Origin: Candidatus Jorgensenbacteria bacterium GW2011_GWB1_50_10
Lineage (GTDB): Bacteria > Patescibacteriota > Minisyncoccia > UBA6257 > GWB1-50-10
NCBI GenBank assembly: GCA_001004105.1
Contig: LCQK01000003.1
Span: 46,805 to 110,804 of the forward strand
Length of the DNA: 64,000 nt
Direction of reading: 5' to 3'
Program-made: the position numbers and the translations under genes
Part shown: piece by piece, positions 2,360 through 43,900 of the stretch
Numbering within the stretch: position 1 is the stretch's first letter
Layout of the letters: every line of letters begins with the position of its first letter
Notes under the pieces: generated by a model
Seen by the model: only the letters and a program-made list of their open reading frames with translations
Told to the model about the DNA's origin: nothing
The model's database searches: none

Positions 2360-2839
2360 ATGGTTATTTATATCGGTGCGGATCACAGAGGATTTGAATT
2401 AAAAGAAAATCTAAAAAGTTTTTTGAAAGCCAAAGGATATCAGGTGGTGGATTTGGGGGCGGAGAGTTATGACAAGGACGATGACTACCCGGATTTTGCC
2501 TCTGCGGTTGCGCGGAAAGTGAGTTTGGATTATGAGAATGCCCGCGGGATTTTGATTTGCGCCTCCGGCGTGGGCATGGACGTGGTTGCCAATAAATTCC
2601 GCAATGTCCGTTCGGCGCTAGTGCTCTCGCCCGACCAGGCCTTTGATTCCCGAAACGACGACAACGCGAACGTTTTAGCTCTCGCGGCGGAATATTTGAA
2701 ACCCGAGGAAGCGGAGAAGATCGTTACGGTTTGGATTGAAACGCCTTTTGCCGGTGACGAGGAGAGATTCAGAAGGCGGCTGGATAAGATTTCGCGGCTG
2801 GAACTCAAGGTTACGCATCCCGTAGACGACGAGGAGTAG
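2360..2839 (+). CDS. rpiB: ribose-5-phosphate isomerase B (RpiB/LacA/LacB family)
   Basis: IYIGADHRGFELKENLK and ILICASGVGMDVVANK motifs. The gene is tightly coupled to gap. Confidence 0.9.
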   Translation: MVIYIGADHRGFELKENLKSFLKAKGYQVVDLGAESYDKDDDYPDFASAVARKVSLDYENARGILICASGVGMDVVANKFRNVRSALVLSPDQAFDSRNDDNANVLALAAEYLKPEEAEKIVTVWIETPFAGDEERFRRRLDKISRLELKVTHPVDDEE

Positions 2840-2852
2840 TGATAAGATTAAT

Positions 2853-3494
2853 TTGATGCAAATTATTCCGTCTATCAATGAAACCGATTTTGAAGAGATA
2901 AGACGCAAAATCGGGTTAGCGGCTTCTTTTGCGGAGTGGGTACATTTTGACGTCTCGGACGGAGAATTCACGGATTTTAAAAACTGGAATGAGCCGGAGA
3001 AGCTTCTGGAGTTAAGTGATGAGCTTTCAGGCATAAGATGCGAAGTTCATTTAATGGTCGCAGAACCGCAGGCGGAGGTTGAACGGTGGCTATCTGCTGG
3101 AGCGGCGAGAATAATTGTCCATGCCGAGATGGTGGAGGACGGCTGGCCGATGGTGATAGACAAAATGGATAATTTCGGCGCGGAGCTGGGGATTGCAGTA
3201 AACCCCGAGACGCCGCTCGAGATCTTGAAACCTTATTTGAAAGCTGTACCTTTCATTCAGCTTCTGGCAGTAAAACCCGGGCCCTCCGGTCAGAAGTTTA
3301 ATGAAACAATTTTGAGTAAAATCAGAATCGTTAAAAGAGAAAATCCCGAGACGCGAGTTGAAATTGACGGTGGGATTAATCTTGAAACGGCAAAATTGGC
3401 CAAAAAGGCCGGTGCGGATATTTTAGTTTCCGGCTCCTATATTTGGCAGAGTCCTGAACCTGAAAAAGCTTATGAAGCGCTCAAAGAAATCTAA
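2853..3494 (+). CDS. rpe: ribulose-phosphate 3-epimerase
   Basis: PSI..D...HFDVSDGEF, HLMV and VDGGIN motifs in a pentose-phosphate gene context. Confidence 0.85.
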   Translation: MMQIIPSINETDFEEIRRKIGLAASFAEWVHFDVSDGEFTDFKNWNEPEKLLELSDELSGIRCEVHLMVAEPQAEVERWLSAGAARIIVHAEMVEDGWPMVIDKMDNFGAELGIAVNPETPLEILKPYLKAVPFIQLLAVKPGPSGQKFNETILSKIRIVKRENPETRVEIDGGINLETAKLAKKAGADILVSGSYIWQSPEPEKAYEALKEI

Positions 3495-5105: not shown

Positions 5106-5972
5106 ATGGAGCCTTTACACGAGGGCAAATTAAAGCATTTAGAGGAGAAAGCAAACACAATAAGGGAGAAGGTTATTGAAACGCTCTTGGAGGCCGGTTC
5201 GGGGCACTCGGCCGGGCCCCTGGGGATGGCGGATATCTTCACCGCTCTTTATTTTCATGTTTTGCGGCATGACCCGAAGAAGCCGGATTGGGCCGACAGG
5301 GACAGATTAATACTCTCAAACGGCCACATTTGCCCGGTGCGCTACGTCGCGATGGCCTACGCCGGCTATTTTCCGGTGGAAGAATTGAAGACCCTCCGCA
5401 AATTGAACACGCGGCTGCAGGGCCACCCGCACCGGAGCGCTCTCCCCGGAGTGGAGACAACCTCGGGGCCCTTGGGTTCGGGGATTTCGCAGGCAATTGG
5501 CGTCGCTTTGGCCGCCCGGCTGGACAATAAAAAACACCGGGTCTATTGCATCACCTCCGACGGCGAGCATCAGGAGGGGAACACTTGGGAGGCGATAATG
5601 TTTGCCGGAAAAATGAAGCATCGCTTGAGTAACCTCACCGTTATTTTGGACCGGAATAACATCCAGATTGACGGTTACACTGAGAATGTGATGCCGCTGG
5701 AGCCCCTACGCGATAAATACGAAAAGTTCAGCTGGCACGTGATAGAAATTGACGGCCACAGCATGGTGCAGTTTACGGATGCGGTCGCCGAAGCGAGCGC
5801 GATTTATGAAAAGCCGACGGTGATTATCGCCCACACTATTCCGGGGAAAGGCGTGAGTTTTATGGAGCGCGACTTTACCTGGCACGGCAAGCCGCCGAAC
5901 AAGGAAGAGGCGGAAAAAGCTTTGACCGAGCTCCGCACGTTGGGTCAGAGAATTAAATCAGAACACGAATAA
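5106..5972 (+). CDS. transketolase, N-terminal (TPP-binding) subunit
   Basis: SGHSAGPLGMADI, SNGH and GPLGSG motifs; this is the split-type tkt. A TATAAT box at 5092-5097 lies 8 nt before the ATG. Confidence 0.9.
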   Translation: MEPLHEGKLKHLEEKANTIREKVIETLLEAGSGHSAGPLGMADIFTALYFHVLRHDPKKPDWADRDRLILSNGHICPVRYVAMAYAGYFPVEELKTLRKLNTRLQGHPHRSALPGVETTSGPLGSGISQAIGVALAARLDNKKHRVYCITSDGEHQEGNTWEAIMFAGKMKHRLSNLTVILDRNNIQIDGYTENVMPLEPLRDKYEKFSWHVIEIDGHSMVQFTDAVAEASAIYEKPTVIIAHTIPGKGVSFMERDFTWHGKPPNKEEAEKALTELRTLGQRIKSEHE

Positions 5973-10513: not shown

Positions 10514-11411
10514 CATGAGAAGTTTACTGGAGATAATCCGGGAAACGGAAAAAGATAAGGTTGCAATAGGCCATTTCAATATTTCCAACCTGGAGCAGTT
10601 AAAGGCGATATCGCATGTCGCGGCGAAACTCAACGTACCGGTCATTATCGGCACATCGGAGGGCGAACGGGACTATATTGGTGTTCATCACGCCGTTGAT
10701 CTCGTCAAAAGTTACAACAAGGAGCACGCAAAAGGAAATTATCGGCTGTTTTTGAACGCCGACCACACCCATACTTTAGAGAACGCGAGGAAAGCGGCTG
10801 AAGTCGGTTATGACGCGATATTATTTGACGGCGGCAAACTGCCCCTTGAAGAAAATATCAGGGCTACGAAAGAAGTCGTAGAAATGGTGAGAAAAATCAA
10901 CAAAAACATCTTAGTTGAAGGTGAGCTGGGCTATATCGGTTCGTCTTCGGAAGTAAGGAAGGAAATTCCGGAAGGGGCGGCGATTAATCCCGGGGATTTG
11001 ACCAGACCGGAGGAAGCAGCGAGGTTCGTTGAAGAAACCGGCGTGGATATGCTTGCGCCGGCGGTGGGGAACATTCACGGCATGTTCGCGAACGCTCCGG
11101 AGCCGCGGCTTGATATAGAACGCATCCGGGAAATCAAGAAAGCGGTTGAAAACCTGCCTGCCGGCAGGCAGGTCCCGCTTGTTTTGCACGGCGCCTCCGG
11201 CAACACCGATGAAGATTTAAGTGTGGCAATCGATGCTGGAATTTCCATAATCCACATTTCCACCGAGCTTCGCGTTGCTTGGCGCAAGGGTTTGGAAGAA
11301 GCTTTGAAGGAGAATCCTGACGAAGTCGCGCCCTACAAGCTGATGCCCGAGGATTTGGCAGAAATGGAGAAAGTGGTGGAGAGAAAATTACGCCTCTTCA
11401 ATAAACTGTAA
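10503..11411 (+). CDS. fba: fructose-bisphosphate aldolase, class II
   Basis: GHFNISN, DHTH and PLVLHGASG motifs. The gene contains an in-frame copy of the 20-bp palindrome (ENLPAGRQVPLVLHG). Confidence 0.9.
   Translation: MKFNMRSLLEIIRETEKDKVAIGHFNISNLEQLKAISHVAAKLNVPVIIGTSEGERDYIGVHHAVDLVKSYNKEHAKGNYRLFLNADHTHTLENARKAAEVGYDAILFDGGKLPLEENIRATKEVVEMVRKINKNILVEGELGYIGSSSEVRKEIPEGAAINPGDLTRPEEAARFVEETGVDMLAPAVGNIHGMFANAPEPRLDIERIREIKKAVENLPAGRQVPLVLHGASGNTDEDLSVAIDAGISIIHISTELRVAWRKGLEEALKENPDEVAPYKLMPEDLAEMEKVVERKLRLFNKL
11153..11172. repeat. 20-bp perfect palindrome CCTGCCTGCCGGCAGGCAGG, copy 1 (inside fba, read as LPAGRQ)
   Basis: Exact 20-mer that equals its own reverse complement. One flanking base on each side (A/T) extends it to 22 bp. 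Confidence 0.95.
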
Positions 11412-11877: not shown

Positions 11878-11893
11878 TATGACATGTCATAGC
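11878..11893. repeat. 16-bp perfect palindrome CTATGACATGTCATAG (right copy)
   Basis: Lies 22 bp upstream of the TrpR-like start codon and 52 bp upstream of the DGR target promoter -35 box. Confidence 0.9.
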
Positions 11894-11944
11894 GTTTTTA
11901 CTGGGTAGTCAGTTGTTTTGTTGCTCTATTCTCGCATATAAAAT

Positions 11945-11973
11945 TGACAAGCTTGTATAAATAGGGTATACTT
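11945..11973 (+). promoter_or_regulatory. sigma-70-type promoter of DGR target gene 1
   Basis: TTGACA (11945-11950), a 17-bp spacer, then TATACT (11968-11973). This is about 80 nt upstream of the ATG at 12054. Confidence 0.6.
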
Positions 11974-12053
11974 TAGGGCAGTACAATAATGGTGAGTCTG
12001 CGGGTCTGGTAAATGCCGGACTGGGGGACGAACCACAAAAAGAGAGGTACAAG

Positions 12054-12749
12054 ATGGCGAAAAAGACGGATGAACTGGTGCAGTTTGCGGGCCACTTCCA
12101 GTCGCTCGCGACTGCGGTTTCCCGCAACCTCGAAGAGCGCGGCGTAAACGTTGTTGAGGCAATCGCGGAGGCCGCAAAGCCGCAAGGCGCTCGGGCGGTC
12201 GCGAAGATCGTAGACGCGCTCGCCGAACTCGTTGAAAACGGCAAGCGGGTCGTCGGCGCTCTCAATCTCATCGTGGCCGACATCGCCGTGAAGACCGAAC
12301 TCTTCACAAAAAATTCGTTCTTCGGCGAGGGGAGCCCAGTAAAACTCTACATCTGGGATAACTTCCGGAACTGGGTACTCACGGCTATCCTTGAGAATAT
12401 ACCTGCGTTCCAGGGTATGCTCGTGAAGCACCAACTCACGAAGGGGATGTATGACTCGGAGATTCTCTCCGGACTCGGGCATCCCACGCCGTTCTCACCA
12501 ACCGAGTTCGCGGCTGTCATTCGCGACCTCATCTCCAAGCAATCGAGAGGCGAGGAGGGCCTTCTCCTCACGAACGGCTACGCCAACATCTTCTATGTAC
12601 AGTTGCCTGCCGGCGCAGGCGGGGAAGATGCACGCGTGGTCGCGGTGCGCGTGACCTGGAACGCCGGGGACGACGACTGGCACCTGGACGCCTACGGCTT
12701 GGACGACGACGGGTGGGGTGACGGTGTCTGCGTGTTCTCTCGCAGCTGA
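12054..12749 (+). CDS. DGR target (variable) protein 1, 231 aa, unassigned family
   Basis: GC-rich ORF whose last 37 codons are the VR. It has no signal peptide or TM segment, and an SD-like AGAGAGG lies upstream of the ATG. A paralog lies at 48342..48932. Confidence 0.85.
   Translation: MAKKTDELVQFAGHFQSLATAVSRNLEERGVNVVEAIAEAAKPQGARAVAKIVDALAELVENGKRVVGALNLIVADIAVKTELFTKNSFFGEGSPVKLYIWDNFRNWVLTAILENIPAFQGMLVKHQLTKGMYDSEILSGLGHPTPFSPTEFAAVIRDLISKQSRGEEGLLLTNGYANIFYVQLPAGAGGEDARVVAVRVTWNAGDDDWHLDAYGLDDDGWGDGVCVFSRS
12602..12623. repeat. decayed copy of the 20-bp palindrome (17/20 with a 2-nt insertion) inside target 1, read as LPAGAGG
   Basis: GTTGCCTGCCGGCGCAGGCGGG lies 9 bp upstream of the VR. 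The paralog has a 6-codon shorter segment at this point (PEDGP versus LPAGAGGEDAR). Confidence 0.6.
12632..12743 (+). repeat. DGR variable repeat VR1
   Basis: 112 bp with 99/112 identity to the TR. All 13 differences lie at TR adenines. Confidence 0.9.
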
Positions 12750-12782
12750 TCTCGGATTTTCGGTCTCTTGGCAATAGTAGTG

Positions 12783-12823
12783 CGCCCCGTTCGAGTTCTT
12801 CGGAACTTGGACGGGGCGTTTTT
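12783..12823 (+). terminator. hairpin with UUCG loop plus T5 downstream of VR1 (intrinsic terminator and/or DGR target-recognition hairpin)
   Basis: 16-bp stem (12783-12798 pairs with 12803-12818, two G-U pairs), loop TTCG, then TTTTT. It starts 40 nt after the end of the VR. Confidence 0.7.
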
Positions 12824-12831
12824 GTTATAAT
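12823..12831 (+). promoter_or_regulatory. extended -10 box TGTTATAAT, candidate promoter of the TR-containing RNA
   Basis: A perfect TGnTATAAT sits directly after the terminator and about 170 nt upstream of the TR. I saw no convincing -35 box. Confidence 0.45.
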
Positions 12832-12998
12832 AAAAATGAAATTTTTTGACATCACTGCGGTCAAGGCTTCAGTGGGAAGATTTCAAAAAACAGAAAGGTC
12901 AGCTGGTGTAGGGCGCTAACGGGTGCGAAAGACCCGGCATTAGATGCAACGCTTAGAGGAATCAAAGCGCAGTGGCAAGGGCGGCGCTTTACACGATA

Positions 12999-13110
12999 AC
13001 GCGTGGTCGCGGTGAACGTGAACTGGAACGCCGAGAACGACGACTGGAACCTGAACGCCAACGGCTTGGACGACGACAGGTGGAATGACGGTAACTGCGT
13101 GTTCTCTCGC
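12999..13110 (+). repeat. DGR template repeat (TR)
   Basis: Non-coding and rich in AAC codons in the VR frame (encodes ...VNVNWNAENDDWNLNANGLDDDRWNDGNCVFSR). It is the adenine-bearing partner of VR1. Confidence 0.9.
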
Positions 13111-13125
13111 CGCTTACCTTTTATA

Positions 13126-13470
13126 TCAGTTCTTTGGGAGCTGTTTTAGCCAACCGCCCAGCATTTTTCCAACTTCGTCAACTTTTCCAGAAAGCGCGGC
13201 GTATTTTTTCGTGTCCAGAGATTTGATTTGCCAGGCAATTTGGAGGAAAAATTTTAGTGAGTCAAGTTTAAAAGAGGAATTCCTGATTTTTGCAAACCGT
13301 TCGGCTGGCGTGAGAGGGGCGGCTGAGAAAATTTCTTCGATAATATCCAAGAAAAGCAAATCTACTTTTACGCCGAGAGTATAGCGCGAGGTTTTGGGAA
13401 AATGAGGCGCGAATTCTTGCCAAAGCGTGTAGGCCGCGATTAGTTTCTGAATAATTGGCAGTTCATTCCG
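13126..13470 (-). CDS. avd: Avd-like accessory variability determinant (four-helix-bundle / 23S-IVS protein family); start codon unresolved
   Basis: The reading frame encodes NELPIIQKLIAAYTLWQEFAPHFPKTSRYTLGVKVDLLFLDIIEEIF...KYAALSGKVDEVGKMLGGWLKQ, a typical Avd pattern. There is no in-frame ATG, GTG or TTG upstream of 13359. An ATG at 13519 is out of frame by one base across a G9 tract. Confidence 0.7.
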   Translation of the reverse strand, partial: RNELPIIQKLIAAYTLWQEFAPHFPKTSRYTLGVKVDLLFLDIIEEIFSAAPLTPAERFAKIRNSSFKLDSLKFFLQIAWQIKSLDTKKYAALSGKVDEVGKMLGGWLKQLPKN

Positions 13471-13472
13471 TC

Positions 13473-13481
13473 GGGGGGGGG
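13473..13481. repeat. homopolymeric G9 (C9 on the avd strand) tract
   Basis: Nine consecutive G, 18-26 nt upstream of the RT ATG and inside the 5' region of avd. Loss of one base would fuse the ATG at 13519 to the avd frame. Confidence 0.9.
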
Positions 13482-13498
13482 TTAGAGGACGGGAATTT

Positions 13499-14482
13499 AT
13501 GAAAATTCAATTGAGCCATAAATTCGAAGATATTATTTCACTGGAAAATCTTTTGGAAGCATGGCGAGAATTTTTGCGCGGCAAGAGAAATAAAAGAGAC
13601 GTTCAGGAATTCTCATCGCGTTTAATGGATAACATTCTATTACTTCACAGCGAACTTCGCAATAAAACCTACAAGCACGGGAAGTACGAAGCCTTTAACA
13701 TCTCCGACCCCAAACCGAGAAACATCCACAAAGCCGCCGTCCGCGACCGCCTACTTCATTACGCTATTTACAGGGTTTTATATCCGTTTTTTGATAAGGT
13801 ATTCATCGCCGATTCTTTTTCCTGCCGTTTGGGAAAAGGGACGCACAGAGCCATCAACCGCTTTAGAACTTTTGCTTATAAAGTGAGTAAAAATAATACC
13901 AAAACCTGCTGGGTTTTAAAGTTGGATATTAGGAAATTCTTCGCGAGTATTGACCATGAAATTTTGATAAAAATTCTTGAGGAATACATACCCGACCAAG
14001 ACATTATCTGGTTGCTGAAGAAAGTGATAGAAAGTTTTTATTCGACCGAACCCGGCAAGGGCCTGCCTTTAGGCAATTTAACCTCCCAGCTTTTAGTAAA
14101 TGTTTACATGAACAAGTTTGACCAATTTGTGAAACACAAGTTCAAGGCCAAGTATTACGTGAGATACGCCGATGATTTTGTGATTGTGTCGAAAAACGGA
14201 ATATGGCTTGAAAGTTTAATTCCGAGAATCAGCGAATTTCTAAACAGAGAATTGAAGTTAAAACTTCACGACGATAAGATATTCATTAAAACTTTAGCTT
14301 CGGGAGTAGATTTCCTTGGCTGGGTTCACTTTCCGGATTACCGAGTTCTGCGAACCACGACCAAAAGAAGAATGTTTAAAAGAATCAAAGAACATCCCGC
14401 GCCGGAAACAATAAATTCTTATTTGGGATTATTAAGGCACGGGAACGCTTATAAATTAAAAAGAAAAATTATTGCTGAATAA
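13499..14482 (+). CDS. DGR-type reverse transcriptase
   Basis: 327 aa. The N-terminus reads [20 protein letters not shown]. Motif 4 [20 protein letters not shown] carries the SQ typical of DGR RTs, and the catalytic motif is [11 protein letters not shown]. There is no maturase or endonuclease extension, and the gene is visibly AT-rich. Confidence 0.9.
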
Positions 14483-14498
14483 TTTTTTTTGTGTTTTA

Positions 14499-15242
14499 AT
14501 GGCGTTTATGGAAGCTAGTATTAGCAAGATAATTTTAGAGATTCGGGCGGGCACGGGCGGGGACGAGGCCTCGCTTTTTGCCGGCGATTTGGCGCGGATG
14601 TATCAGAGGTTTGCCGCCCGGCGGGGCTGGAAATTCTCGACGCTCGATGCGAGCGAGTCCGGCGCGCGCGGCTATAAGACGTTCATCGCGGAGATCGGCG
14701 GCCCGGGCGTCTACGAGGCATTGAAGAACGAATCCGGCGTGCACCGGGTGCAGAGAGTGCCGGATACCGAACGGGGCGGCCGGGTGCATACCTCAACCGT
14801 ATCGGTCGCGGTTTTACCCGTAGTGGAAACCAAGGATTTTCAAATTAAAGAAAGCGATTTGGAAGTGACTTTCTCCCGCGCCGGCGGTCCCGGCGGCCAG
14901 AACGTGAACAAAGTGGAAACTGCGGTTCGAATCACCCATAAACCCACCGGCGTTGTCGTAGGTTCCAGGGAAGAACGGAGCCAGCACGCCAATCGCGAGA
15001 AAGCGATGGAGGTCTTGCGGGCCAAGCTTTACGAGGCGCAGAAAGAACAGCAAGTGGGGTCGGTTGCGGAGTTGCGGAGAGGGCAGATCGGCTCGGCCGG
15101 ACGGGCGGAGAAGGTAAGGACATATAATTTTCCGCAGGATAGAATTACAGATCACAGAGTAAGTAAAAAATGGAGTAATATTGAAAAGATATTAGAAGGT
15201 AATCTTGACCCAATCATACAGGCATTTTTGAAAGTCAATTAA
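14499..15242 (+). CDS. prfA: class I peptide chain release factor (RF1-like, PxT-type) lacking the N-terminal domain
   Basis: [27 protein letters not shown] (P-x-T), GGPGGQNVN (GGQ) and [14 protein letters not shown] motifs. RF1 homologs have about 100 more N-terminal residues. The start at ATG 14499 is inferred; the ORF track uses TTG 14472. Confidence 0.8.
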
Positions 15243-15248
15243 AAAATC

Positions 15249-15268
15249 CCTGCCTGCCGGCAGGCAGG
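15249..15268. repeat. 20-bp palindrome, copy 2 (junction between prfA stop and the displaced prfA 3' remnant)
   Basis: Exact CCTGCCTGCCGGCAGGCAGG, 6 nt after the prfA stop codon. Confidence 0.95.
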
Positions 15269-15379
15269 CGCACCTATAATTTTCCGCAGGACAGGATAAC
15301 CGACCACCGTCAGGGCAAAAAGGTTTCAAATATTCTGAAAGTTCTCGACGGCGATTTGGACAAACTAACCGGCCGTTAA
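15269..15379 (+). pseudogene. displaced original 3' end of prfA (36 codons plus stop, out of frame with prfA)
   Basis: Encodes [36 protein letters not shown]. It shares the 17-mer TATAATTTTCCGCAGGA with 15123-15139 and is GC-rich like the prfA core. Confidence 0.75.
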
Positions 15380-16870
15380 AATTTCTATATCCTTTTGGAA
15401 TTGCTGGGCTTTCACGACCACCGGTTCGCCGTAAGCCCAGCGGTAGTAATACCACCGGCCACCGGCGTAGTATCTTGCCGCGGCGCAGCGTTCGGCAAGG
15501 ACTTGGGCATCGGCGATGTTTCTGTTTTCGCTCACGTAATTCCGGCAAGCGCTGGAATTCAGGGCGTCTTTGAGATACAAGGAAGTCGCAACGAAAGCGT
15601 CGGCGTTTGACCAGGGATTGGAAGGAGTTTGGCCGGTGATTTTCCCAATATAATCCTTGCTTTGGTTATACTCCCAGGAACTGCCGTTTTTCTCCCAACC
15701 GCCGTAGATGGCCCAGGTTGAGGGAATGAATTGGGCCGGGCCCATGGCGCCGCCGTAGGCGCCGTCTCTGTTGGCACAGGAAACCTTCGCCACGGTTGAA
15801 TTCGGGTCAATGCCGAGCTTGGAAAGAATGGCGAGGAAAATCGGAACGTCGCGGGTGGGGTGCATGGCGCCCTGGTAGCTGCAGCGGCCGACGTTTTTCC
15901 CCAGAAGAGATTCTTGCTGAAGAATGGCGAGAAGAAAAGCGGCCCGGACCCCGGTTGCGCCTTCGGCAAGGCGGGCGTATTTATAGGCCTCTTCAAAAGT
16001 GAGTTCGCCGCCTCCCAAAAGACGGAAAATTCTGCTTCTTATTTGAGCGGCAGTGGCTTGGGTTTCTTTCAGGATTTTTTGGTATTCGGATTCTTTGCCT
16101 TTGGTTACGGTCAGAAGCTGATTTTTTTCCGCTTGGGTCGTCGCGACGCTCTTTTTTTGCGATTCCTGATAATTCTTGAGATTTTCCACGTCGGATTTTT
16201 CCGCGGCGAGCTCCTGTTTTTGCTCAAGCAATTCCACCCGAAGGGCGACAACTTCGTTTAAGGCCGTCCGGATGTTGGACTGAACCAGGGTTATGTTGTT
16301 GACGTCACCGAAGAAATCCGAAAGATTGGCATTGGCCAGCAACACCTCGATCAAGCTTTGGGCGTCGGCTTCATAGAGGTCGCGGACGCCTCTCGCAAGG
16401 GCCGTTTTATGGCCGTCAATTCTGTTTTCGGTAACGTTTATGTTCTTTTGAGTGCTCGTTATTTCGTCGTCCAATTTCTGGAGATTCAGGTTGACCGCTT
16501 TAATTTGGAGGTTCAACTGGCTGATTTTGGCGTTCAGGGATTTTATTTCGTTAGTGAGGGTTTTGCCCTGTTTTTGATATTCGGCAACCGTACTTTGATG
16601 TTCAAGGATTTGGCGCTCCAATTCGGCAAGTTCGTTTTCAAGTTTCTCCCGTTCTTCCTGGCTGGTCGCGCCGTTTTCCGTGCCCGTCATCTCGGCTGCC
16701 TGGGTCGGAGTGTTCAGTTTGGTTCCGAGAAGAAGCCCCGAAAAAGCGAGGAGAACCAAAACTCCTCCTACGAATTTGATTGATTTGGTAAGAGGGATCC
16801 GGATAGCGGTCGAATAGGAGAGATTGAGACGTCTTTTACGGCTGGCCTTAATATCGTAGATTTTGCGCAT
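15365..16870 (-). CDS. membrane-anchored coiled-coil protein with C-terminal lytic-transglycosylase-like domain
   Basis: N-terminal TM segment and a long heptad-like region ([16 protein letters not shown]...). The C-terminal part has [12 protein letters not shown] and [13 protein letters not shown], which are SLT/MltB-like motifs. Confidence 0.7.
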
Positions 16871-34404: not shown

Positions 34405-34860
34405 ATGAACGAGATTCTTACCACGATTCTTGTCGCCGCCTCGCCTATTTTTGAAATCCGGGGAGCAATACCTCTTGCGATTTTTGGGTTTAATATGCCG
34501 CCGTTTGAGGCCTACGTCTTGGGAATAATAGGGAATTTTTTGCCGGTTTTGCCGCTCCTTTTCTTTTGGAATTTCCTTTACGAAAAACTTGTGCACCGGC
34601 TCTACCAGCTTAACCGTTTTTTCAACTGGCTTTTTGAGAGAACGAGAGCCAAGCACGCCGACCATTTTGCCCTTTGGCAGGACGTCGCTCTTTTGGTTTT
34701 TGTGGCCATTCCTCTGCCCATGACCGGGGCCTGGAGCGGGACGGTTGCGGCTTTTGTTTTCGGGGTGCCGATAAAGCAGGCGGCGCTCATGATTTGCCTT
34801 GGCAATATGATATCGGGCTTGATTGTTTTATTATTATCCAAGGGCGTTTCGCTCATATGA
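34405..34860 (+). CDS. small membrane protein (COG2426 / small multidrug export-like)
   Basis: ASPIFEIRGAIPLAI N-terminus and four hydrophobic segments. Confidence 0.6.
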   Translation: MNEILTTILVAASPIFEIRGAIPLAIFGFNMPPFEAYVLGIIGNFLPVLPLLFFWNFLYEKLVHRLYQLNRFFNWLFERTRAKHADHFALWQDVALLVFVAIPLPMTGAWSGTVAAFVFGVPIKQAALMICLGNMISGLIVLLLSKGVSLI

Positions 34861-35585
34861 GTAAACTCATCATTGCCAACTGGAAAATGAATCCGTCCAC
34901 TGTGTCGCAAGCAGTGAAGCTCGCACGCGCGGAGGATAAGAAAGGCGTGGTTATCGCGCCGCCGTTTCCTTTCCTTCCGTTGGTTTCAAAAGTTTTAAGG
35001 AAAGCAAAATTGGGGGCACAGGACGCTTTTTGGGTGCCGAAAGGCGCCTATACCGGCGAGGTTTCCATCCATCAACTTAAAACTTTGCGCGTTAAATACG
35101 TGATAATCGGCCACTCCGAGCGCAGGGGGCTTGGCGAAACGGATTGGTTGATCAATAAGAAAATCAGAGCCGCTCTTGCCGAAGACCTCACGGTTATTTT
35201 GTGCGTCGGCGAACCGTGGAGGGTTCGACGCAAAGGACTTGCCGCCGCAAAAAGATTTGTAAAACAGCAACTTCAAAAAGATTTAAAGGGAACTGATAAG
35301 CTAACGAAGTTGAAAGCTGAAAGCTTAATTACTGCTTACGAGCCCGTCTGGGCCATCGGCACCGGCCATGCCGACAGGCCCGAAGGTGCAGTTGAAATGA
35401 TTAAATTCATTAAAAAAAATCTACAATCTAAAACCTATAACCTAAAATCTAGAGTACTGTACGGCGGGTCGGTTACCGGGAGGAACGCAGCCGGGTTTTT
35501 GAAACAAAAAGAAATTGGTGGCGCTCTGGTCGGCGGGGCGAGTTTGAAACCATCCGAATTTAAGAGAATCATCCGGAGTTTATAG
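34857..35585 (+). CDS. tpiA: triosephosphate isomerase
   Basis: MSKLIIANWKMNPS start, overlapping the previous stop as ATGA. IIGHSERR and AYEPVWAIGTG motifs. The longer ORF-track start at 34674 was rejected. Confidence 0.9.
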   Translation: MSKLIIANWKMNPSTVSQAVKLARAEDKKGVVIAPPFPFLPLVSKVLRKAKLGAQDAFWVPKGAYTGEVSIHQLKTLRVKYVIIGHSERRGLGETDWLINKKIRAALAEDLTVILCVGEPWRVRRKGLAAAKRFVKQQLQKDLKGTDKLTKLKAESLITAYEPVWAIGTGHADRPEGAVEMIKFIKKNLQSKTYNLKSRVLYGGSVTGRNAAGFLKQKEIGGALVGGASLKPSEFKRIIRSL

Positions 35586-35590
35586 TTTTT

Positions 35591-36664
35591 ATGGTTAGTT
35601 CCTGGCGAAAATTTGACTGGCTTCTTTTTTCCGCGCTTCTTGCGATTGCTCTTGCGAGCTTGGTTTCGCTTTTGAGTTCCAATGCAATCCTTTTTTACAA
35701 ACAGCTTGTTTGGTACATAATCGCGTTCTGTCTCATTCTTTTCTCCATCCGTATCGACTGGCGCGGCCTTATCAAAGAGTCTTATTTCCGCTACGGGATT
35801 TACTGGTTCGCCGTCGCTCTTCTTCTTATAGTTGACTTATCGGGGAAAACCATAAGAGGCGTAACAAGCTGGCTCCAATTCGGTGATTTTCAATTTGAAC
35901 CGGCCGAACTCGCCAAACTTGGGCTGATTCTGCTCCTTGCCGGATTTTTTTCCAGGCGCCACATCGCCGCTTGGGTCGGCAAAAACATCGCCCTCTCTTT
36001 TTTCTACGCCTTAATCCCGACGGTCCTCGTCGCCGTTCAACCCGACCTCGGTTCGGCGCTCGTCGTTTTCGGAATTTGGATCGGTTTTTTGCTTCTTTCC
36101 GGAATAAATAAAAAAAGATTAGCCGTGGGTTTCTTGGTAGCTATCCTCTTTGCCGGCCTGCTTTGGGGTTTCTTTCTTAAGCCCTATCAAAAAGACCGGC
36201 TTCTCGGGTTCGTCAATCCCGAACGCGACCCGCTGGGCGTAAACTACAACGTTATCCAGTCGAAAATCGCCATCGGTTCAGCAGGATTCTGGGGCAAAGG
36301 TTTTGGCGCGGGCACGCAAGTCCAGTTCGGTTTTCTTCCCGAGGCGGAGACCGATTTTATTTTCGCCGCCTTCGTTGAGGAATGGGGGATCGTGAGCGGG
36401 CTCATTATTATTCTCGCTTTTCTCCTCGTAGTTTCCCGGATTGTAAAAATCGGCATTGAGGCGAAGAACAACGACTACAAATTCATTACTTTGGGGACGG
36501 CGCTTGTTCTCGCTATTCATTTTCTCCTTAATATCGGCTCAAACTTGGGTTTTTTGCCCGTGACGGGCATTAATTTCCCGTTTTTAAGCTACGGCGGTTC
36601 CAATATCTTGACAGTCGCGATTCTCGTAAGTATAGTAGAAAGAATCAAGCTTGAATCCTCATGA
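35591..36664 (+). CDS. FtsW/RodA/SpoVE-family peptidoglycan polymerase
   Basis: Ten-TM pattern by eye, with QPDLGSALV, ETDFIFAAF and PFLSYGGSN motifs. Confidence 0.88.
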   Translation: MVSSWRKFDWLLFSALLAIALASLVSLLSSNAILFYKQLVWYIIAFCLILFSIRIDWRGLIKESYFRYGIYWFAVALLLIVDLSGKTIRGVTSWLQFGDFQFEPAELAKLGLILLLAGFFSRRHIAAWVGKNIALSFFYALIPTVLVAVQPDLGSALVVFGIWIGFLLLSGINKKRLAVGFLVAILFAGLLWGFFLKPYQKDRLLGFVNPERDPLGVNYNVIQSKIAIGSAGFWGKGFGAGTQVQFGFLPEAETDFIFAAFVEEWGIVSGLIIILAFLLVVSRIVKIGIEAKNNDYKFITLGTALVLAIHFLLNIGSNLGFLPVTGINFPFLSYGGSNILTVAILVSIVERIKLESS

Positions 36665-37698
36665 TTAACGAAAGAGGCCTTTTAAATTTGCGTTTCCTTA
36701 TTGCTTTAGGAGGCGTTTTATTTTTAATACTTGCGACCGCTTATTTTTTCTACGGTTTGGAACCGAATCTCGCCTCCGGCGAGTCGAGAAATGACAGTCC
36801 CTCCGCCGCCGCCTCGGTTTTCAAAATTTCCAAAGGCGAAGGTCTGAAAGAAATCGGCGCCCATCTCTCGCAAGGCGACTTCATTAAATCCATCACGATT
36901 TTCAAACTTTATTCGTTATTCTCCGGCAACGCCCAGAAATTTAAGCCGGGCATCTACGAAATAAATTCCGGGATGAGCGTTCCGGAAATAGTGAAGGTAT
37001 TGACCGCCGGCGGAGAGAATGAAGTGACAATTGTTATTCCCGAGGGCACCGCTTTGAAAGACATCGATTCCGTCCTCGCCGCCTCCGGCATCATAGAGAA
37101 AGGTTCTTTGGTGAAATATTCATTTGCCGCGCTCCGGCCGGATTATCCGTTCTTAAACGACGTGAGTTCGCTCGAGGGTTTTCTCTTTCCTGATACTTAT
37201 CGTTTTGAAGTCTCTTCGCAAACCGAAACGGTTGTGAAAACAATGCTTGATAATTTCAAAGTCAAAGTTTGGGAGGGCTTGAGTTCCAAAAACAATTGGT
37301 ATGATACGCTTATTCTCGCTTCCTTTCTGGAGCGGGAAGTGATTGATTTCGCTGACCGGCAGATTGTGGCCGGAATCCTATTGAAAAGACTCAAACTCGG
37401 CATGCCCTTGCAAGTTGATGCCACTATAAGCTATCTTAAATGTAATGGTGAACTCAAGGGGTGCCGAGGGGCCCTCATCACTAAAAAGGATCTGAGTTTG
37501 CCTTCGCCATACAACACTTATCAGAGGTTAGGTTGGACGCCAACCCCCATTTCTAATCCGGGGGAGGTCTCCATTTCTGCGGCTTTGAATCCCGTTTCCA
37601 GTTCTTATTTGTATTATCTTTCCGCCAAAGGAACTCAGGAAACGATTTTTGCGAAGACGCTCGAGGAACACAACCGCAACCGGGCTAAATATCTATAG
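36661..37698 (+). CDS. mltG: endolytic transglycosylase MltG (YceG-like)
   Basis: N-terminal TM segment, LASFLEREV with a catalytic-Glu context, and LPSPYNTYQRLGWTPTPISNPG. Confidence 0.85.
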   Translation: MINERGLLNLRFLIALGGVLFLILATAYFFYGLEPNLASGESRNDSPSAAASVFKISKGEGLKEIGAHLSQGDFIKSITIFKLYSLFSGNAQKFKPGIYEINSGMSVPEIVKVLTAGGENEVTIVIPEGTALKDIDSVLAASGIIEKGSLVKYSFAALRPDYPFLNDVSSLEGFLFPDTYRFEVSSQTETVVKTMLDNFKVKVWEGLSSKNNWYDTLILASFLEREVIDFADRQIVAGILLKRLKLGMPLQVDATISYLKCNGELKGCRGALITKKDLSLPSPYNTYQRLGWTPTPISNPGEVSISAALNPVSSSYLYYLSAKGTQETIFAKTLEEHNRNRAKYL

Positions 37699-37772
37699 AC
37701 CTCAAAGTGCTACATCCCGTTTAACCGAGAGAAGCCTTTCGCGTTTCAATCGTCTTAAAATAAAAGGGCATT

Positions 37773-40700
37773 ATGTCAAAAGTAAAAGTTTTTTCATATT
37801 ACAAGGGACCCAAGTTCACAGGACCGAATCTCATAGAATTTCAGCTCAATTCCTTCAATTGGTTTCTGAAGACGGGCCTGAAGGAGCTTTTTGATGAGAT
37901 TTCGCCGATTAAGGACCACACTGGGAACGAGTTGGAACTTCATTTTTTGGATTACAAGTTCGACCCGCCCAAATACACCGAAGAGCAATCCAAATACAAA
38001 GACCTGACCTATGAGGCCGCTCTTCGGGTCAATTTAAAGCTCGTTGACAAGACCGTGAAGCAGAGCCGGACCCAGGAAGTTTATCTCGGCGACTTTCCGA
38101 TAATGACCGAGCGCGGCACCTTCATTATCAACGGCGTGGAGCGGGTGGTCATCGCCCAGCTCATCCGTTCGGCCGGTGTCTATTTTACCGCGTCCGTTTT
38201 CCGGGGGCGGAAGCTTTTCGGCGCCAAAGTGATTCCCAACCGCGGCAGTTGGATAGAATTAGAAACTGATGCAAGCGGCCTTATCGGCGTGAAAATTGAC
38301 CGCAAGAGGCGGGTGCCCGTAACCTCGCTCCTCCGGATTTTCGGTCTGCAGTCGAATGATGCAATTTTGAAGAAATTTGCCAACGTTGATACCGGCAAAA
38401 TCAAATTCATTGAAGCAACTTTAAAACAGGATGATGCCAAAACCGTTGATGAGGCCTATATTGAAATTTACAAGCGCCTTCGGCCGGGGGATTTGGCGAC
38501 CGCCGACAACGCCCGGTCCTTGATTGAACCAATGTTCCAGCGTTTCGACCGCTACGATCTGGGCGCCGTCGGCCGCTTCAAATTCAATCAGCGATTGGAA
38601 ATAACCAAAAAGAAAAACGGCCTTTTGGATTTGGAAGATGTCGCTCAGCTAGTCAAAGAAGCAATCAGATTGAACAATGATTTACTTGCCGAGCCGGACG
38701 AAATCGACCATCTGGGGAACCGCCGGGTAAGAGCGGTCGGGGAACTGATGCAGTCGCGCCTCCGCGTCGGCTTCGCGAGAATGCGCCGCGGCGTCCAGGA
38801 CCGGATGTCCACTCTGGAACGGAAAGGACTCCAGCCCGCCCAGCTCGTAAACTACAAAGTACTGACCGCCGTTATCCGCGATTTTTTCACTTCTTCCCAG
38901 CTTTCGCAATTCATGGACCAAGTGAACCCTTTAGCTGAATTGGAACACAAGCGGCGGCTATCCGCCATGGGTCCCGGGGGTCTCACGCGTGAGCGAGCCG
39001 GCTTTGAGGTCCGCGACGTGAACCCATCCTATTATGGGCGGATTTGTCCCATTCAGACGCCGGAAGGCGCGAACATCGGTCTCGTCAACTACTTGGCCAA
39101 TTACGCCCGTTTGAATGACTTTGGGTTTTTGGAAGCACCTTATTTTGCTGTCTTGAGGGGCAAGGTTACTTCTAAAGTCGTTTGGTTGGATGCGATCGAG
39201 GAGCAGAAGCACATTATCGGCCAGGCTGACACCAAAACCGACGAGGACGGCCGCATTGCGAAGGAAAGGGTGGCCGCGAGAATCAAAGGCAAGCCGGGGC
39301 AGTGCAAGCGGGAAGAGTTGGAATTCATGGACGTTTCGCCCAACCAGTTCGTGAGCATCGCCACATCTCTCATTCCTTTTCTGGAACATGATGACGCGAA
39401 CCGGGCGCTCATGGGCTCCAACATGCAGCGCCAGGCCGTTCCTTCTATTAAACCGCAGGCGCCCTTGGTCGGCACCGGCGTTGAAGAAAAAGCAGCTTAC
39501 GATTCCCGGCAGGTTTTAATTTCCGACCACGACGGCGTGGTCGCGGCCGTCGACGGCAAGGAAATCGTGATTAAAACCGATGGCGGCGAAAAGGTTTACA
39601 ACATCATCAAATTCCGCCGGTCCAATCAGTCCACTTGTCTTTCCCAACAGCCGGTGGTTCGGGTGGGCGACAAAGTGAAGAGTGGAACGCTTCTCGCCGA
39701 CGGTCCCGCGACCGAAGGGGGAGTGCTTGCCCTGGGCCAGAATCTTTTGGTCGCTTTTATGCCCTGGCACGGCGGCAATTACGAGGATGCCATCATTTTA
39801 TCGGAGCGCGTCCAACAGGAGGATTTATTCACCTCCATTCACATTGAAACGTTCGTTTGTTCCGTCCGCGACACCAAACTGGGTCCCGAGATGACGACGC
39901 CGGACATTCCAAACGTAGCCGAAGACAAATTAAGGAACCTGGACGAAGAGGGCATTGTCCGCATCGGTGCCGAAGTGCGGGCGAACGACATTTTGGTCGG
40001 AAAGATTTCTCCCAAAGGCGAATCGGAACTCACCTCCGAAGAGCGGCTCCTGCGGGCCATCTTCGGCGAGAAGGCGCGGGACGTTAAAGATTCATCTCTC
40101 ACTATTCCCCACGGCAAGCAAGGTCGTGTGATTGGCGTGAAAATCTTCTCGCGCGACAAAGGTGACAAACTCGAACCGGGTATCATTAAAAAAATCCAGA
40201 TTGAGATCGCCCAACTACGCAAAATCCGGGCCGGCGACAAGCTGACTGGCCGGCACGGCAACAAAGGCGTTATTTCCCAAATCAGGGCCGTTGAAGACAT
40301 GCCCCATCTTGAGGACGGCACGCCGGTGGACGTCATTTTGAATCCCCTGGGTGTTGTCTCCCGAATGAACCTCGGCCAGGTTCTGGAAACGCATCTCGGC
40401 TTTGCCGCCAAAAAACTTGGCTACCGCGCCGTGGTGCCGCCCTTTGTTGGCGCCTCCGAAGAAGAAATTAAATCGGAAATGGAAAGCGCGGGTATTCCTA
40501 AGACGGGGAAGATTAAGGTTTACGACGGTTTGACCGGCGAGCCCTTCCGAGAACCGGTGATGGTGGGTTATGTCTACATAATGAAACTCAACCACTTAGT
40601 TGAGGACAAAATCCACATGCGCTCCACCGGTCCTTATTCTTTGATTACCCAGCAACCTTTGGGTGGCAAGGCCCAGCTCGGCGGCCAGCGCTTCGGCGAA

Positions 40701-40952
40701 ATGGAGGTTTGGGCCCTTGAGGGCTACGGGGCCGCTCATACCCTTCAGGAGATGCTTACTATAAAATCCGACGATGTTCTCGGCCGATCAGCGGCCTTTG
40801 AATCTATTATTCGCGGCCAGGATATTAGAAAGCCGAATATTCCCGCTTCTTTCAACGTGCTCGTTTCGGAATTGAAGGCTCTGGGTTTGGGCGTTGATAC
40901 CGTGGGCGGCGAAGACGGCGAGAAAGACAATAAAGAAGAACATGACGAATAG
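37773..40952 (+). CDS. rpoB: DNA-directed RNA polymerase beta subunit
   Basis: GTFIINGVERVVIAQL, RLSAMGPGGL, NMQRQAVP and GRHGNKGVIS motifs. Confidence 0.97.
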   Translation: MSKVKVFSYYKGPKFTGPNLIEFQLNSFNWFLKTGLKELFDEISPIKDHTGNELELHFLDYKFDPPKYTEEQSKYKDLTYEAALRVNLKLVDKTVKQSRTQEVYLGDFPIMTERGTFIINGVERVVIAQLIRSAGVYFTASVFRGRKLFGAKVIPNRGSWIELETDASGLIGVKIDRKRRVPVTSLLRIFGLQSNDAILKKFANVDTGKIKFIEATLKQDDAKTVDEAYIEIYKRLRPGDLATADNARSLIEPMFQRFDRYDLGAVGRFKFNQRLEITKKKNGLLDLEDVAQLVKEAIRLNNDLLAEPDEIDHLGNRRVRAVGELMQSRLRVGFARMRRGVQDRMSTLERKGLQPAQLVNYKVLTAVIRDFFTSSQLSQFMDQVNPLAELEHKRRLSAMGPGGLTRERAGFEVRDVNPSYYGRICPIQTPEGANIGLVNYLANYARLNDFGFLEAPYFAVLRGKVTSKVVWLDAIEEQKHIIGQADTKTDEDGRIAKERVAARIKGKPGQCKREELEFMDVSPNQFVSIATSLIPFLEHDDANRALMGSNMQRQAVPSIKPQAPLVGTGVEEKAAYDSRQVLISDHDGVVAAVDGKEIVIKTDGGEKVYNIIKFRRSNQSTCLSQQPVVRVGDKVKSGTLLADGPATEGGVLALGQNLLVAFMPWHGGNYEDAIILSERVQQEDLFTSIHIETFVCSVRDTKLGPEMTTPDIPNVAEDKLRNLDEEGIVRIGAEVRANDILVGKISPKGESELTSEERLLRAIFGEKARDVKDSSLTIPHGKQGRVIGVKIFSRDKGDKLEPGIIKKIQIEIAQLRKIRAGDKLTGRHGNKGVISQIRAVEDMPHLEDGTPVDVILNPLGVVSRMNLGQVLETHLGFAAKKLGYRAVVPPFVGASEEEIKSEMESAGIPKTGKIKVYDGLTGEPFREPVMVGYVYIMKLNHLVEDKIHMRSTGPYSLITQQPLGGKAQLGGQRFGEMEVWALEGYGAAHTLQEMLTIKSDDVLGRSAAFESIIRGQDIRKPNIPASFNVLVSELKALGLGVDTVGGEDGEKDNKEEHDE

Positions 40953-43900
40953 AAATTCCGACGTTAAATCAATATCCATCAGAATGGCTTCGCCTGGGGA
41001 AATTCTACAGTGGTCTCACGGTGAAGTTATTAAGCCCGAAACGTTGAATTACCGCACCCAGCGGCCGGAGAAGGACGGGCTTTTTTCCGAACGGATTTTC
41101 GGTCCGACCCGAGATTACGAGTGCTACTGCGGCAAATACAAGAAAATCCGGTACAAGGGCGTGGTCTGCGAGAAATGCGGCGTAGAAGTGACGCGGGCCC
41201 AGGTCCGACGCGAAAGGATGGGACACATCAATCTCGCCACCCCCATCGTTCATATCTGGTTTTTGAAAACCGTGCCGAGTCGCTTGAGCTTGCTTTTGGA
41301 CATCTCCGTGCCGAAGCTGGAGAAAGTCATCTATTACGCCGCTTTTGTCGTGACTTCAGTGAATGAAGAAGCGAAATCTCAAACTCTCCTTAAGCTGAAG
41401 CAAGAATTCAAATCCCTGAAGAAAGAAAAGAAAAGCGCCGAAGACAACCTAGAAGAAGCGAAGGAACGGCAGGAGGAAATCCTCTCCGTTTTGAAGCCGG
41501 GTTTGATTCTTACGGAAGCCGAGTACTACGCCCTTTCGCGGGTTTTCGGCGACGTTTTTGAAGCCGACCGCGGCGCGGGAGCCGTGAGGAAAATTCTTGA
41601 AGGCATAGATTTGAACATTCTCGTGAAGGATTTAAATAAAGAACTTGAAACTTTAAAAGATGTCACGCGCCGCCGCCGCGTCTTGCAGCGTTTGCGGCTT
41701 ATCAGGTCGCTGCAAAAATCAGGGCTACGGCCCGAGTGGATGGTTTTGACCGTGCTCCCGGTTCTCCCGCCGGAATTGCGGCCGATGGTCGCCTTGGACG
41801 GCGGGCGTTACGCCACCGCCGACTTGAACGATCTCTATCGCCGCGTCATCAACCGCAACAACCGGCTCAAAAAACTCGTTGATTTGAAAGCGCCGGAGGT
41901 CATTGTCGTGAACGAAAAGAGAATGCTTCAGGAAGCAGTTGACGCTTTAATTGATAATTCTTCGAGTTTGGGCACTCAGATTCTTTCCACCCGTCGCCGC
42001 CCGCTCCGGTCGCTCGCCGACCTTTTGAAAGGCAAGCAAGGCCGGTTCCGCCAGAACCTGCTCGGCAAACGGGTTGATTACTCGGGCCGCTCGGTCATCG
42101 TCGTCGGCCCCGAATTGAAATTGAACGAATGCGGCCTGCCGAAAAATCTCGCTCTTGAGCTTTTCCGGCCGTTTGTCATCAACAAAATCATTGAACGGGG
42201 CCACGCTTACAACATCAAGCAGGCCAACCGCTTAATTGAACAGGGAACTTCCGACGTCTGGGCTATTTTGGAAGAAGTGATGGCGAACAAGAGGATTCTT
42301 TTAAACCGCGCACCCACTCTCCACCGTCTCGGCATTCAGGCCTTCAAACCGCTCCTTATTGAAGACCTCGCCATTCGGATTCCGCCGCTCGTCTGTTCGG
42401 CCTTCAACGCCGACTTCGACGGCGACCAAATGGCCGTTCACTTGCCGCTCACCGTTGAGGCGCAGTACGAAGCCAAATATTTAATGGACGCCGCCAAGAA
42501 CTTATTGAAACCGGCCAACGGCGAGCCGATTGTGACGCCTACCCAAGATGTGGTTTTGGGAATTTATTACCTGACGAGAGGGAAGAAGGACGCGAAAGGT
42601 GAAGGCAAAATATTTTCTGATTTCACGGAAGCGATGCTTGCTTATGAGGCCGGTCTTTTGGATCTGAACGCCGAGATTAGAGTAAGGCATGATGGCAAAA
42701 TAATCGCGACGACTTACGGCCGGCTGATTTTTAACAGTATCCTGCCGGAGGGATTTGGCTTTGTGAACGACCATCTCACCAAATCCAAGCTGGCAAAGTT
42801 GGTGAGCCGCATTATTGATAAATATGGAATTGAATCCTCCCACGAGTATCTGGACAGAATCAAAAACCTCGGTTTTCTTTACGCCACTATTTCCTCAATC
42901 AGTTTCAGCATTGACGACACGATAATTCCGAAAGAAAAAGAGGAAATTCTTGCGAAGGGCAACGATGAGGTGGCCGCGATTGAAGCGCAGTACCACGAAG
43001 GGCTTTTAACCGAAAAAGAGCGCCAGCGCAACATTATTGGTGTCTGGACTCGCGTTTCGGGACAGGTGAGCGACTTAGTTGCCAAAGAACTGTCGCCGTC
43101 AAATCCGCTCTATTCCATCATCAACTCCGGTGCCCGCGGCACCTGGGCTCAACTGCACCAGGTGATGGGCATGAAGGGACTTCTCACGAACCCGAAGAAC
43201 GAAACCATCGAATTGCCCGTCAAATCCTCCTTTAAGGAAGGCCATAAGGTCCTGGAGTATTTTATTTCCACCCACGGCGCCCGCAAGGGTTCGACCGACA
43301 CCGCCCTAAAGACCGCCTCCGCCGGCTACTTGACGCGCCGGCTCGTTGACGTGGCCCAAGACGTAATCGTGAAAGAAAAAGACTGCAAAACGGAGAAGGG
43401 TATAGAGCTTATAAGAAAGGAAGGCGACGCCTATGGCTATGACTTCGGCGACCGGGTTTATTCCCGAACCACCCTGGAAGACGTGAAAATCGGCCGGAGG
43501 GCCGTGGTAAAAGCCGGCGAAGTTATAAGCCGCGCCGCCTCCGAAGAAATTCAGACCTCCGACATCGCTTCTGTCAAAGTGCGTTCGCCCATCACCTGCA
43601 ATTCGCTCTACGGGATTTGTTCCGCCTGTTACGGTTGGGATTTGGCTACGGAAAAACCCGTTCTAATCGGCGAAGCGGTTGGCATTGTGGCGGCGCAGTC
43701 CATCGGTGAGCCGGGCACCCAGCTTACCATGCGAACTTTCCACATCGGAGGAGTCGCGGGCGTGGACATCACCGCCGGCCTCCCTCGGGTGGAGGAGGTT
43801 TTTGAGGCAAGGCCGCCGAAAGGCAAAGCCGTGCTTGCCAAGGACGGCGGCACGGTTGTGGGCATTGAAGAACAAGGTCTCACTAAAGTCATCAAAATTA

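Follow-up and report, generated by a model that had tools for sequence, protein, structure and literature searches.

The 64,000-nucleotide (nt) stretch of Candidatus Jorgensenbacteria bacterium GW2011_GWB1_50_10 analysed here (GCA_001004105.1, contig LCQK01000003.1, positions 46,805 to 110,804), which we call the window, carries directly downstream of a diversity-generating retroelement (DGR) an open reading frame (ORF) for a class-I release factor resembling bacterial RF1. The ORF opens about 5 residues ahead of the conserved segment that contains RAGTGG, and its first residue corresponds to about residue 112 of E. coli RF1, give or take a few; it is referred to below as the short RF1. Two ATG codons are candidate starts, one at 14508 and one at 14499, the latter giving a protein of 247 amino acids (aa), and the stop codon is at 15240-15242. 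The start at 14508 is favoured by the N-termini of the family, which follow the pattern M-E-x-x-I-N-K-I-I-L-E. The stop codon of the DGR reverse transcriptase (RT; TAA, 14480-14482) is separated from the RF1 ATG by 16 nt (14499) or 25 nt (14508), and an in-frame TAA is present 14 codons upstream at 14457-14459. All coordinates of features are collected in Table 1.

In the known structures of RF1, domains 2 and 4 read UAA and UAG in the decoding centre through the PxT loop and the tip of the GTGGDEA helix, and the GGQ motif of domain 3 hydrolyses the peptidyl-tRNA. Domain 1 of class-I release factors, which is present in the RF1 and RF2 of most bacteria, is thought to serve mainly for docking at the L11/L7-L12 stalk and for coupling to RF3. 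Both Pfam domains of an RF1 are found in the short RF1: RF-1 (PF00472) is matched over its full length (E 1.2e-38), whereas the match to PCRF (PF03462, E 2.9e-43) covers profile positions 100-194 of 194. Among the NCBIfam models the prfA equivalogs rank first (NF001859, 360.7 bits; TIGR00019, 348.9 bits) and are preferred over the RF2 model prfB (235.9 bits). The prfA models align from profile position 105 or 113 on, with positions 1-104 or 1-112 unmatched, likewise positions 1-99 of PCRF. A phmmer search against the PDB placed RF1 chains on top (E 7e-79), followed by RF2 (about 1e-48) and PrfH (9e-14). Residues 6-241 match residues 86-321 of T. maritima RF1 with zero gaps, and residues 8/9-241 match residues 112-345 of E. 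coli RF1 and 107-340 of T. thermophilus RF1, again gap-free. Thus, domains 2, 3 and 4 align with those of the canonical RF1 (prfA) of these three bacteria residue-for-residue and with no indels, at about 47% identity over the model, and the PxT loop, the GTGGDEA helix tip, the GGQ motif and the RTYNFPQ C-terminal region are all in place. The AlphaFold2 model (pLDDT 77) superposes on ribosome-bound RF1 with a TM-score of 0.79-0.80. What distinguishes the short RF1 from its canonical counterparts is that it has no N-terminal helical domain 1 of about 105 residues.

Every element that stop-codon reading and hydrolysis need, in sequence as well as in fold, is intact and conserved. In an alignment of 38 homologs about 100 of the 244 columns are invariant, and the glycine and glutamate residues of the helix tip, Q82, P85 and T87 of the PxT region, the HTST segment and the GGQ motif (G129, G130, Q131) all fall among them. 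Invariant are likewise the codon-reading residues G15, G17, G18, E20, H94, T95, S96 and T97, as in an RF1, while the middle residue of the PxT motif varies among the homologs (D/E/V/T/A/I), which is usual for RF1. For six genes dN was 0.14-0.25 with dS saturated, and dN/dS was at most 0.1 where it could be computed. The gene is under strong purifying selection, which argues against a decaying or redundant fragment. An earlier note on this DNA, made from the letters alone, had described an RF1-like ORF without the whole N-terminal domain, beginning 16 nt past the DGR RT, with its PDT, GGQ and C-terminal regions intact. The spacing is true for the ATG at 14499, the missing domain is borne out by the Pfam, NCBIfam and PDB alignments, and the intact motifs agree with our reading of the sequence and with the 38 homologs.

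Absence of domain 1 is also a property of PrfH (RFH) and ArfB, and the short RF1 gives weak matches to the models of both (TIGR03072, 82.7 bits; ArfB, 57.4 bits), so a specialised rescue or repair-coupled factor instead of a general RF1 has to be considered. We regard such an identity as very improbable. The prfA models score 349-361 bits, whereas the prfH score lies under its cut-off of 166.65, and the identity to RF1 structures contrasts with the E-value obtained for PrfH. PrfH keeps a codon-recognition-like domain and the GGQ motif but has an altered recognition motif, occurs in an operon with RtcB and is sporadic in distribution, whereas the short RF1 keeps the canonical PxT loop and has, instead of an adjacent rtcB, genes for fructose-bisphosphate aldolase (FBA), an SLT-like protein and ribosomal proteins L25 and L31 as its neighbours. 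With ArfB (YaeJ)/ICT1 the short RF1 has the GGQ domain in common (local match, residues 108-143), but in ArfB a codon-recognition domain is lacking and the C-terminus is a basic tail, while domains 2 and 4 are complete in the short RF1.

The short form is not peculiar to the window. Among the best 120 of 8000 homologs, retrieved by a search against 5.8 billion clusters, none is full-length; they are 240-291 aa long and 73-83% identical, and the named ones belong to Jorgensenbacteria, Brennerbacteria, Paceibacterota or the 'Patescibacteria group'. All of the 22 that were aligned begin 4-6 residues before the same conserved segment, longer gene calls merely adding unrelated residues upstream, and several of the homologs are located well inside long contigs. 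A search of 1.84 billion 50%-identity representatives, in which the list also holds many fragments and frameshift fusions of odd length, confined genuine short forms to a few clusters, namely P0122 (232 aa, 67%) and P0124 (242 aa, 58%), while the nearest full-length RF1 (P0125) is 345 aa long and 58% identical.

The short gene recurs in four lineages without a DGR (six contigs), where it has the neighbours that it has in the window, PfkB/aldolase – RF1 – SLT-like – L25 – L31, with 23-150 nt upstream of it. In the closest DGR-free relative, L001 (GCA_030648515.1, 278 kb), the order is PfkB – FBA – TrpR-like (minus strand) – RF1 (242 aa) – SLT-like (minus strand) – L25 – L31, and the window has the same order, except that the DGR lies where L001 has a 150-nt spacer. 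On a 680-kb contig (L002/L003) RF1 begins 23 nt past PfkB, and in L212, to which L214 is equivalent, 46 nt lie between the aldolase gene and RF1. L001 and the window also agree in the 35 nt that precede the start and in the doublet ATGG(C/T)(G/A)TTTATGGAA, which are conserved, and the final RT codons (ATT GCT GAA TAA) run into this native RF1 leader.

These comparisons bear on the origin of the short gene, for which the earlier note had left two explanations: truncation of prfA by the DGR/RT module, or a lineage that naturally uses a release factor without domain 1. In the former case the module would have inserted into or beside a prfA of full length and severed domain 1 from it, leaving a start that is secondary and element-derived, as the closeness of the RT stop codon to the RF1 ATG and the RT-like AT-richness of the first codons might suggest. 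This is refuted by the relatives and we consider it extremely improbable: DGR-free genomes have the same short gene with the same N-terminus and the same synteny, the leader and the start are conserved with L001, the DGR sits in the spacer, and it is restricted to contigs of the window's species. The AT-rich 5' end, with a GC content of 0.28 before RAGTGG and 0.62 in the core, is as the note had described. The same shift is seen in all of a further six short RF1 genes that we examined, of which five have no DGR close by (5' part 0.24-0.40; core 0.48-0.62). The first dozen codons are AT-rich because the N-terminus is rich in Ile, Asn and Lys and not because they are RT-derived DNA. Composition, which the note had called weak evidence, is therefore uninformative on a chimeric 5' end, and we rejected it as a sign of one. 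The comparison with DGR-free relatives, a check that the note itself had named, thus comes out for a lineage trait: the short form is common to a large set of ultra-small Patescibacteria and the neighbouring retroelement is therefore not its cause. We consider it highly probable that the ORF is the ordinary, functional RF1 of this organism, a prfA ortholog which lost domain 1 in evolution in a form common to a large Patescibacteria clade, and that the DGR inserted later. The DGR (target gene, template repeat and RT; about 11.9-14.48 kb) would have entered the short spacer upstream of RF1 in this species only, ending just before or within the native leader and leaving the coding sequence unaltered.

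Some observations weigh against regarding the short gene as the ordinary RF1. A Shine-Dalgarno sequence is not visible and the start may be either 14499 or 14508. The curated prfA cut-offs are missed (360.7 against 400 for NF001859; 348.9 against 423.25 for TIGR00019). A second RF1, RF2, RF3, PrmC and L11 were not located in the 84 kb examined, while the largest contig alone has 295 kb. The tblastn search with the release factor against the window and all fetched loci returned no second release factor, other release factor genes are absent from the 64-kb window and the 10-kb flank on each side, and genes for PrmC, RF3 and L11/L10/L7-L12 are absent from the window, where the rpoB-rpoC region (34674-44592) is preceded by TIM, FtsW and YceG and not by the usual L11-L1-L10-L7/L12. 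Since 84 kb of the genome is covered, we infer, and do not observe, that this is the sole RF1 and that RF3 is absent. The scores fall under the prfA cut-offs because about 105 profile positions are missing; for the same reason NCBI names the relatives just 'PCRF domain-containing protein', so that an automated assessment of completeness or of marker genes may record such genomes as having no RF1.

If a full-length RF1 elsewhere in the genome did the work, the short gene could be a redundant or decaying partial copy, a view to which the partial visible genome, the scores under the cut-offs and the fragment of another RF1 3' end that adjoins the gene (described below) lend something. We think this unlikely in view of the strong purifying selection, the invariance of all functional residues throughout the clade and the housekeeping synteny conserved beside L25 and L31. 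Moreover, no full-length form occurs among the best 120 homologs, and only the short clusters P0122 and P0124 outrank the RF1s of full length, the nearest of which reach an identity of 58% at most.

Domain 1 might alternatively be encoded but hidden by a frameshift, an assembly error or transfer to a separate small ORF. The earlier note had seen no window ORF for a detached domain 1 and had proposed to look upstream for frameshifts or alternative starts. When the window was translated in six frames, a domain-1 hidden Markov model (HMM) built from 57 full-length RF1 sequences gave no hit (best E 1.4), in agreement with the note, and it gave none in the 4-6 kb around nine further loci with a short RF1. 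As positive controls, full-length RF1s from Gracilibacteria, Peregrinibacteria, Andersenbacteria, Saganbacteria and others scored 1e-16 to 1e-27, although the HMM is weak on diverged versions (1e-3 for Kaiserbacteria, E 0.1-0.3 for L036 and L040). Upstream, the DNA is taken up by an RT ORF that is complete, and a stop codon in frame precedes the start. The gene is identical in four independent assemblies of the species, and the relatives leave just 23-150 nt upstream. A hidden domain 1, for which there speak no more than the general possibility and the limited sensitivity of the HMM to diverged versions, therefore appears highly unlikely.

The most likely function of the short RF1, judged from its sequence, is housekeeping termination at UAA and UAG in the absence of the domain responsible for docking at the L11 stalk and for interaction with RF3. 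The engineered domain-1 deletions of E. coli RF1 and RF2 (Mora et al. 2003, as summarised in PMC1586002) have the same architecture. Domain 1 is needed neither for codon recognition and specificity nor for hydrolysis, and the truncated RF1 works in vivo and supports growth, while stimulation of RF3 is abolished; RF3 itself is non-essential and missing from small genomes (PMC1586002). As domain 1 is dispensable for release and required for RF3 stimulation, the short RF1 should therefore terminate at UAA and UAG without stalk docking or RF3-assisted recycling. From what is known of release factors, it would make no contact with the L11/L7-L12 stalk region and would not be recycled by RF3, so that it would have to leave the ribosome spontaneously or with the help of other factors. 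Unlike the E. coli constructs, which were made in a host that bears RF3, the short RF1 carries a deletion that is natural and fixed, with purifying selection acting throughout a clade. A clade with a highly conserved RF1 of this kind indicates that organisms in nature can also live with the deletion that E. coli constructs tolerate. If so, nature would here have made the experiment that tells the purpose of domain 1 and RF3, and the short-RF1 genomes are suited to asking whether RF3 loss or stalk changes go with the loss of domain 1, whether RF2 took the same path, and how a release factor departs from the ribosome unaided. Our full-text literature searches found no description of a domain-1-less RF1 in the Candidate Phyla Radiation (CPR)/Patescibacteria, and a wide-ranging review of how release factors evolved speaks of the GTPase-interacting domain being lost solely in the PrfH, ArfB-like and MRPS35 lineages.

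The extent of domain 1 appears graded across Patescibacteria. In a sample of GTDB species we counted the residues before RAGTGG, which number about 110 in canonical RF1. The main short clade and L014 have 8-15, L012 and P0147 have about 30, Kaiserbacteria, Paceibacterota and one metagenome-assembled genome (MAG) labelled Saccharibacteria have about 80-87, and Andersen-, Gracili- and Peregrinibacteria have about 110-115, as do non-CPR bacteria. A rough neighbour-joining tree, calculated without support values, keeps the main short clade together and places a second short group and the group with a reduced domain nearby. Domain 1 thus looks like it has been progressively reduced (about 110, 80, 30 and 0 residues), possibly with more than one complete loss. 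We tentatively suggest that a large branch of Patescibacteria, including Jorgensenbacteria, Brennerbacteria and other Paceibacteria, terminates at UAA and UAG with an RF1 permanently devoid of domain 1, so that termination free of the stalk and RF3 would be normal there, and the intermediates would fit a stepwise loss. Such termination may be linked to the reduced ribosomes of Patescibacteria.

The ORFs of the window use all three stop codons (TAA 26, TAG 16, TGA 16), and RF2 activity is therefore expected. A scan of metagenomes with a degenerate pattern for the SPF loop of RF2 gave 120 RF2 loci, of which all complete ones carry domain 1 and none is assignable to Patescibacteria; the outlier loci with GGQNVQK matched motifs of Chloroflexi RF1. 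A masked RF2 query with the GGQ context of the clade returned only RF2 of the Bacteroidota/Ignavibacteria type, and two further neighbourhood look-ups did not find the RF2 of this lineage. Public entries of 248-257 aa were considered as a short RF2 and rejected as gene-call artefacts, because they start at an internal Met (MLSGKDD). Artefacts starting at an internal Met or Leu are also seen among RF2 entries of 280 and 313 aa (P0283, P0285, P0327, P0330, P0362 and others, together with those of 248-257 aa), and they are probably due to the programmed +1 frameshift in prfB. The GGQ context covaries between RF1 (L030/L027) and RF2 (L166/L152/L105): for example, FHASGHGGQNVQKV is shared by the RF1 of L030, an Anaerolineae MAG, and the unassigned metagenomic RF2 L166, which was taken as Chloroflexi on that basis. 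This covariation is consistent with shared constraints or with gene conversion between paralogs.

Table 1. Features of the RF1 locus and its surroundings in the window (TR, template repeat; VR, variable repeat).
Feature	Position	Strand	Description
Domain-1-less RF1 gene	14508..15242	+	244 aa, domains 2, 3 and 4 only
PxT 'peptide anticodon' P-D-T	14760..14768	+	Read from sequence; P85 and T87 invariant in 38 homologs
GGQ peptidyl-tRNA hydrolysis motif	14892..14900	+	Read from sequence; G129, G130 and Q131 invariant in 38 homologs
Native RF1 5' leader	14473..14507	+	ATTGCTGAA…TTGTGTTT(T/A)AATGG(C/T)(G/A)TTT, common to the window and DGR-free L001
20-nt palindrome CCTGCCTGCCGGCAGGCAGG	15249..15268	.	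Just past the RF1 stop, after an A-run
Putative displaced RF1 3'-end remnant	15269..15379	+	111 nt, out of frame with the live gene
DGR reverse transcriptase	13499..14482	+	Pfam RVT_1, E 9.7e-27
DGR template repeat (TR)	12999..13110	+	From VR/TR comparison
17-bp hairpin	12782-12819		3' of the target gene
DGR variable repeat (VR)	~12632-12743	+	140-nt VR/TR repeat, 82% identity
DGR target gene	12054..12749	+	No Pfam match; VR at 3' end
Near-consensus promoter TTGACA-17-TATACT	11944-11972		Upstream of the DGR target gene

With an RT, a TR/VR pair and a VR at the 3' end of the target gene, the region 11944-14482 is a complete DGR cassette. Of the 25 VR/TR mismatches, 15 are at TR adenines, and the other 10 were judged by eye to be located past the point where the repeat proper stops. 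The RT and target gene were found only in the four contigs of the window's species (L004-L007), and the target protein is identical in three independent contigs, so that no diversification is visible between samples. The DGR did nothing to the RF1 gene, a deflationary outcome for the idea of truncation by the element. In L011, a further short-RF1 genome with an RF1 that is 65% identical, an RT homolog (2433-2957, minus strand; 34% identical to the RT of the window) is present about 1 kb upstream of RF1 and in the opposite orientation to it, which may be coincidence or may mark a region of recurrent insertion. The idea of a leaderless RF1 mRNA was dropped: the candidate TTGCTG-17-TT(T/A)AAT-7-ATG, which is conserved upstream of the gene, lacks the A at position 2 of the second hexamer and was not called by the scan. 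A palindrome, ATGACATGTCAT, is located just upstream of the divergent TrpR-like/HTH gene in both the window (about 11878-11892) and DGR-free L001 (about 5887-5904), and it is therefore probably the operator of this regulator (candidate).

A remnant downstream of the RF1 stop codon, present in all four contigs of the window's species and absent from the relatives, encodes a second RF1 C-terminus (tblastn, 67.5% over 40 aa, E 2e-11). It forms with the live gene (15120-15155) a direct repeat at an offset of 152 nt, the core of which, TATAATTTTCCGCAGGA, is exact over 17 nt. With the 3' end of a related short RF1 (P0051/L210) the remnant has a nucleotide identity of 86%, whereas the live 3' end is only 61% identical; in comparison to L210 the middle of the live gene is 82-88% identical and its last ~200 nt 27-65%. 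The GC content of the 3' end is 0.29 in the live gene, which is unusually AT-rich there, 0.47 in the remnant and 0.36-0.51 in the relatives. The simplest reading is that the remnant represents the original RF1 3' end, which a segment with a different RF1 3' end and a terminator palindrome would have replaced or displaced, e.g. in a recombination event for which homology served as anchor on just one side.

The final 15 nt of the convergent SLT-like gene (15365-16870), the C-terminus of which matches its L001 counterpart in a translation made by hand, lie within the remnant. This coiled-coil protein is 501 aa long in one assembly of the species and 464 aa in two (L005/L006), which could be a difference in start site or an indel. 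On the minus strand CCTGCCTGCCGGCAGGCAGG reads as a terminator-like hairpin followed by a T-run for the SLT-like gene. The window contains five copies of CTGCCTGCCGGCAGGCAG, a perfect palindrome of 18 nt (11154, 15250, 17914, 51723 and 63522), with flanks that are not conserved. The copy at 15250 is the one in the terminator-like hairpin on the minus strand. Two copies lie inside the coordinates of a UvrC-like gene (51585-52814; copy at 51723) and a TraG/VirD4-like gene (62106-63587; copy at 63522), where, if in frame, they would encode LPAGRQ. The copy at 11154 is in frame in the fructose-bisphosphate aldolase gene and accounts there for a 7-residue insertion, ENLPAGR, relative to L001.

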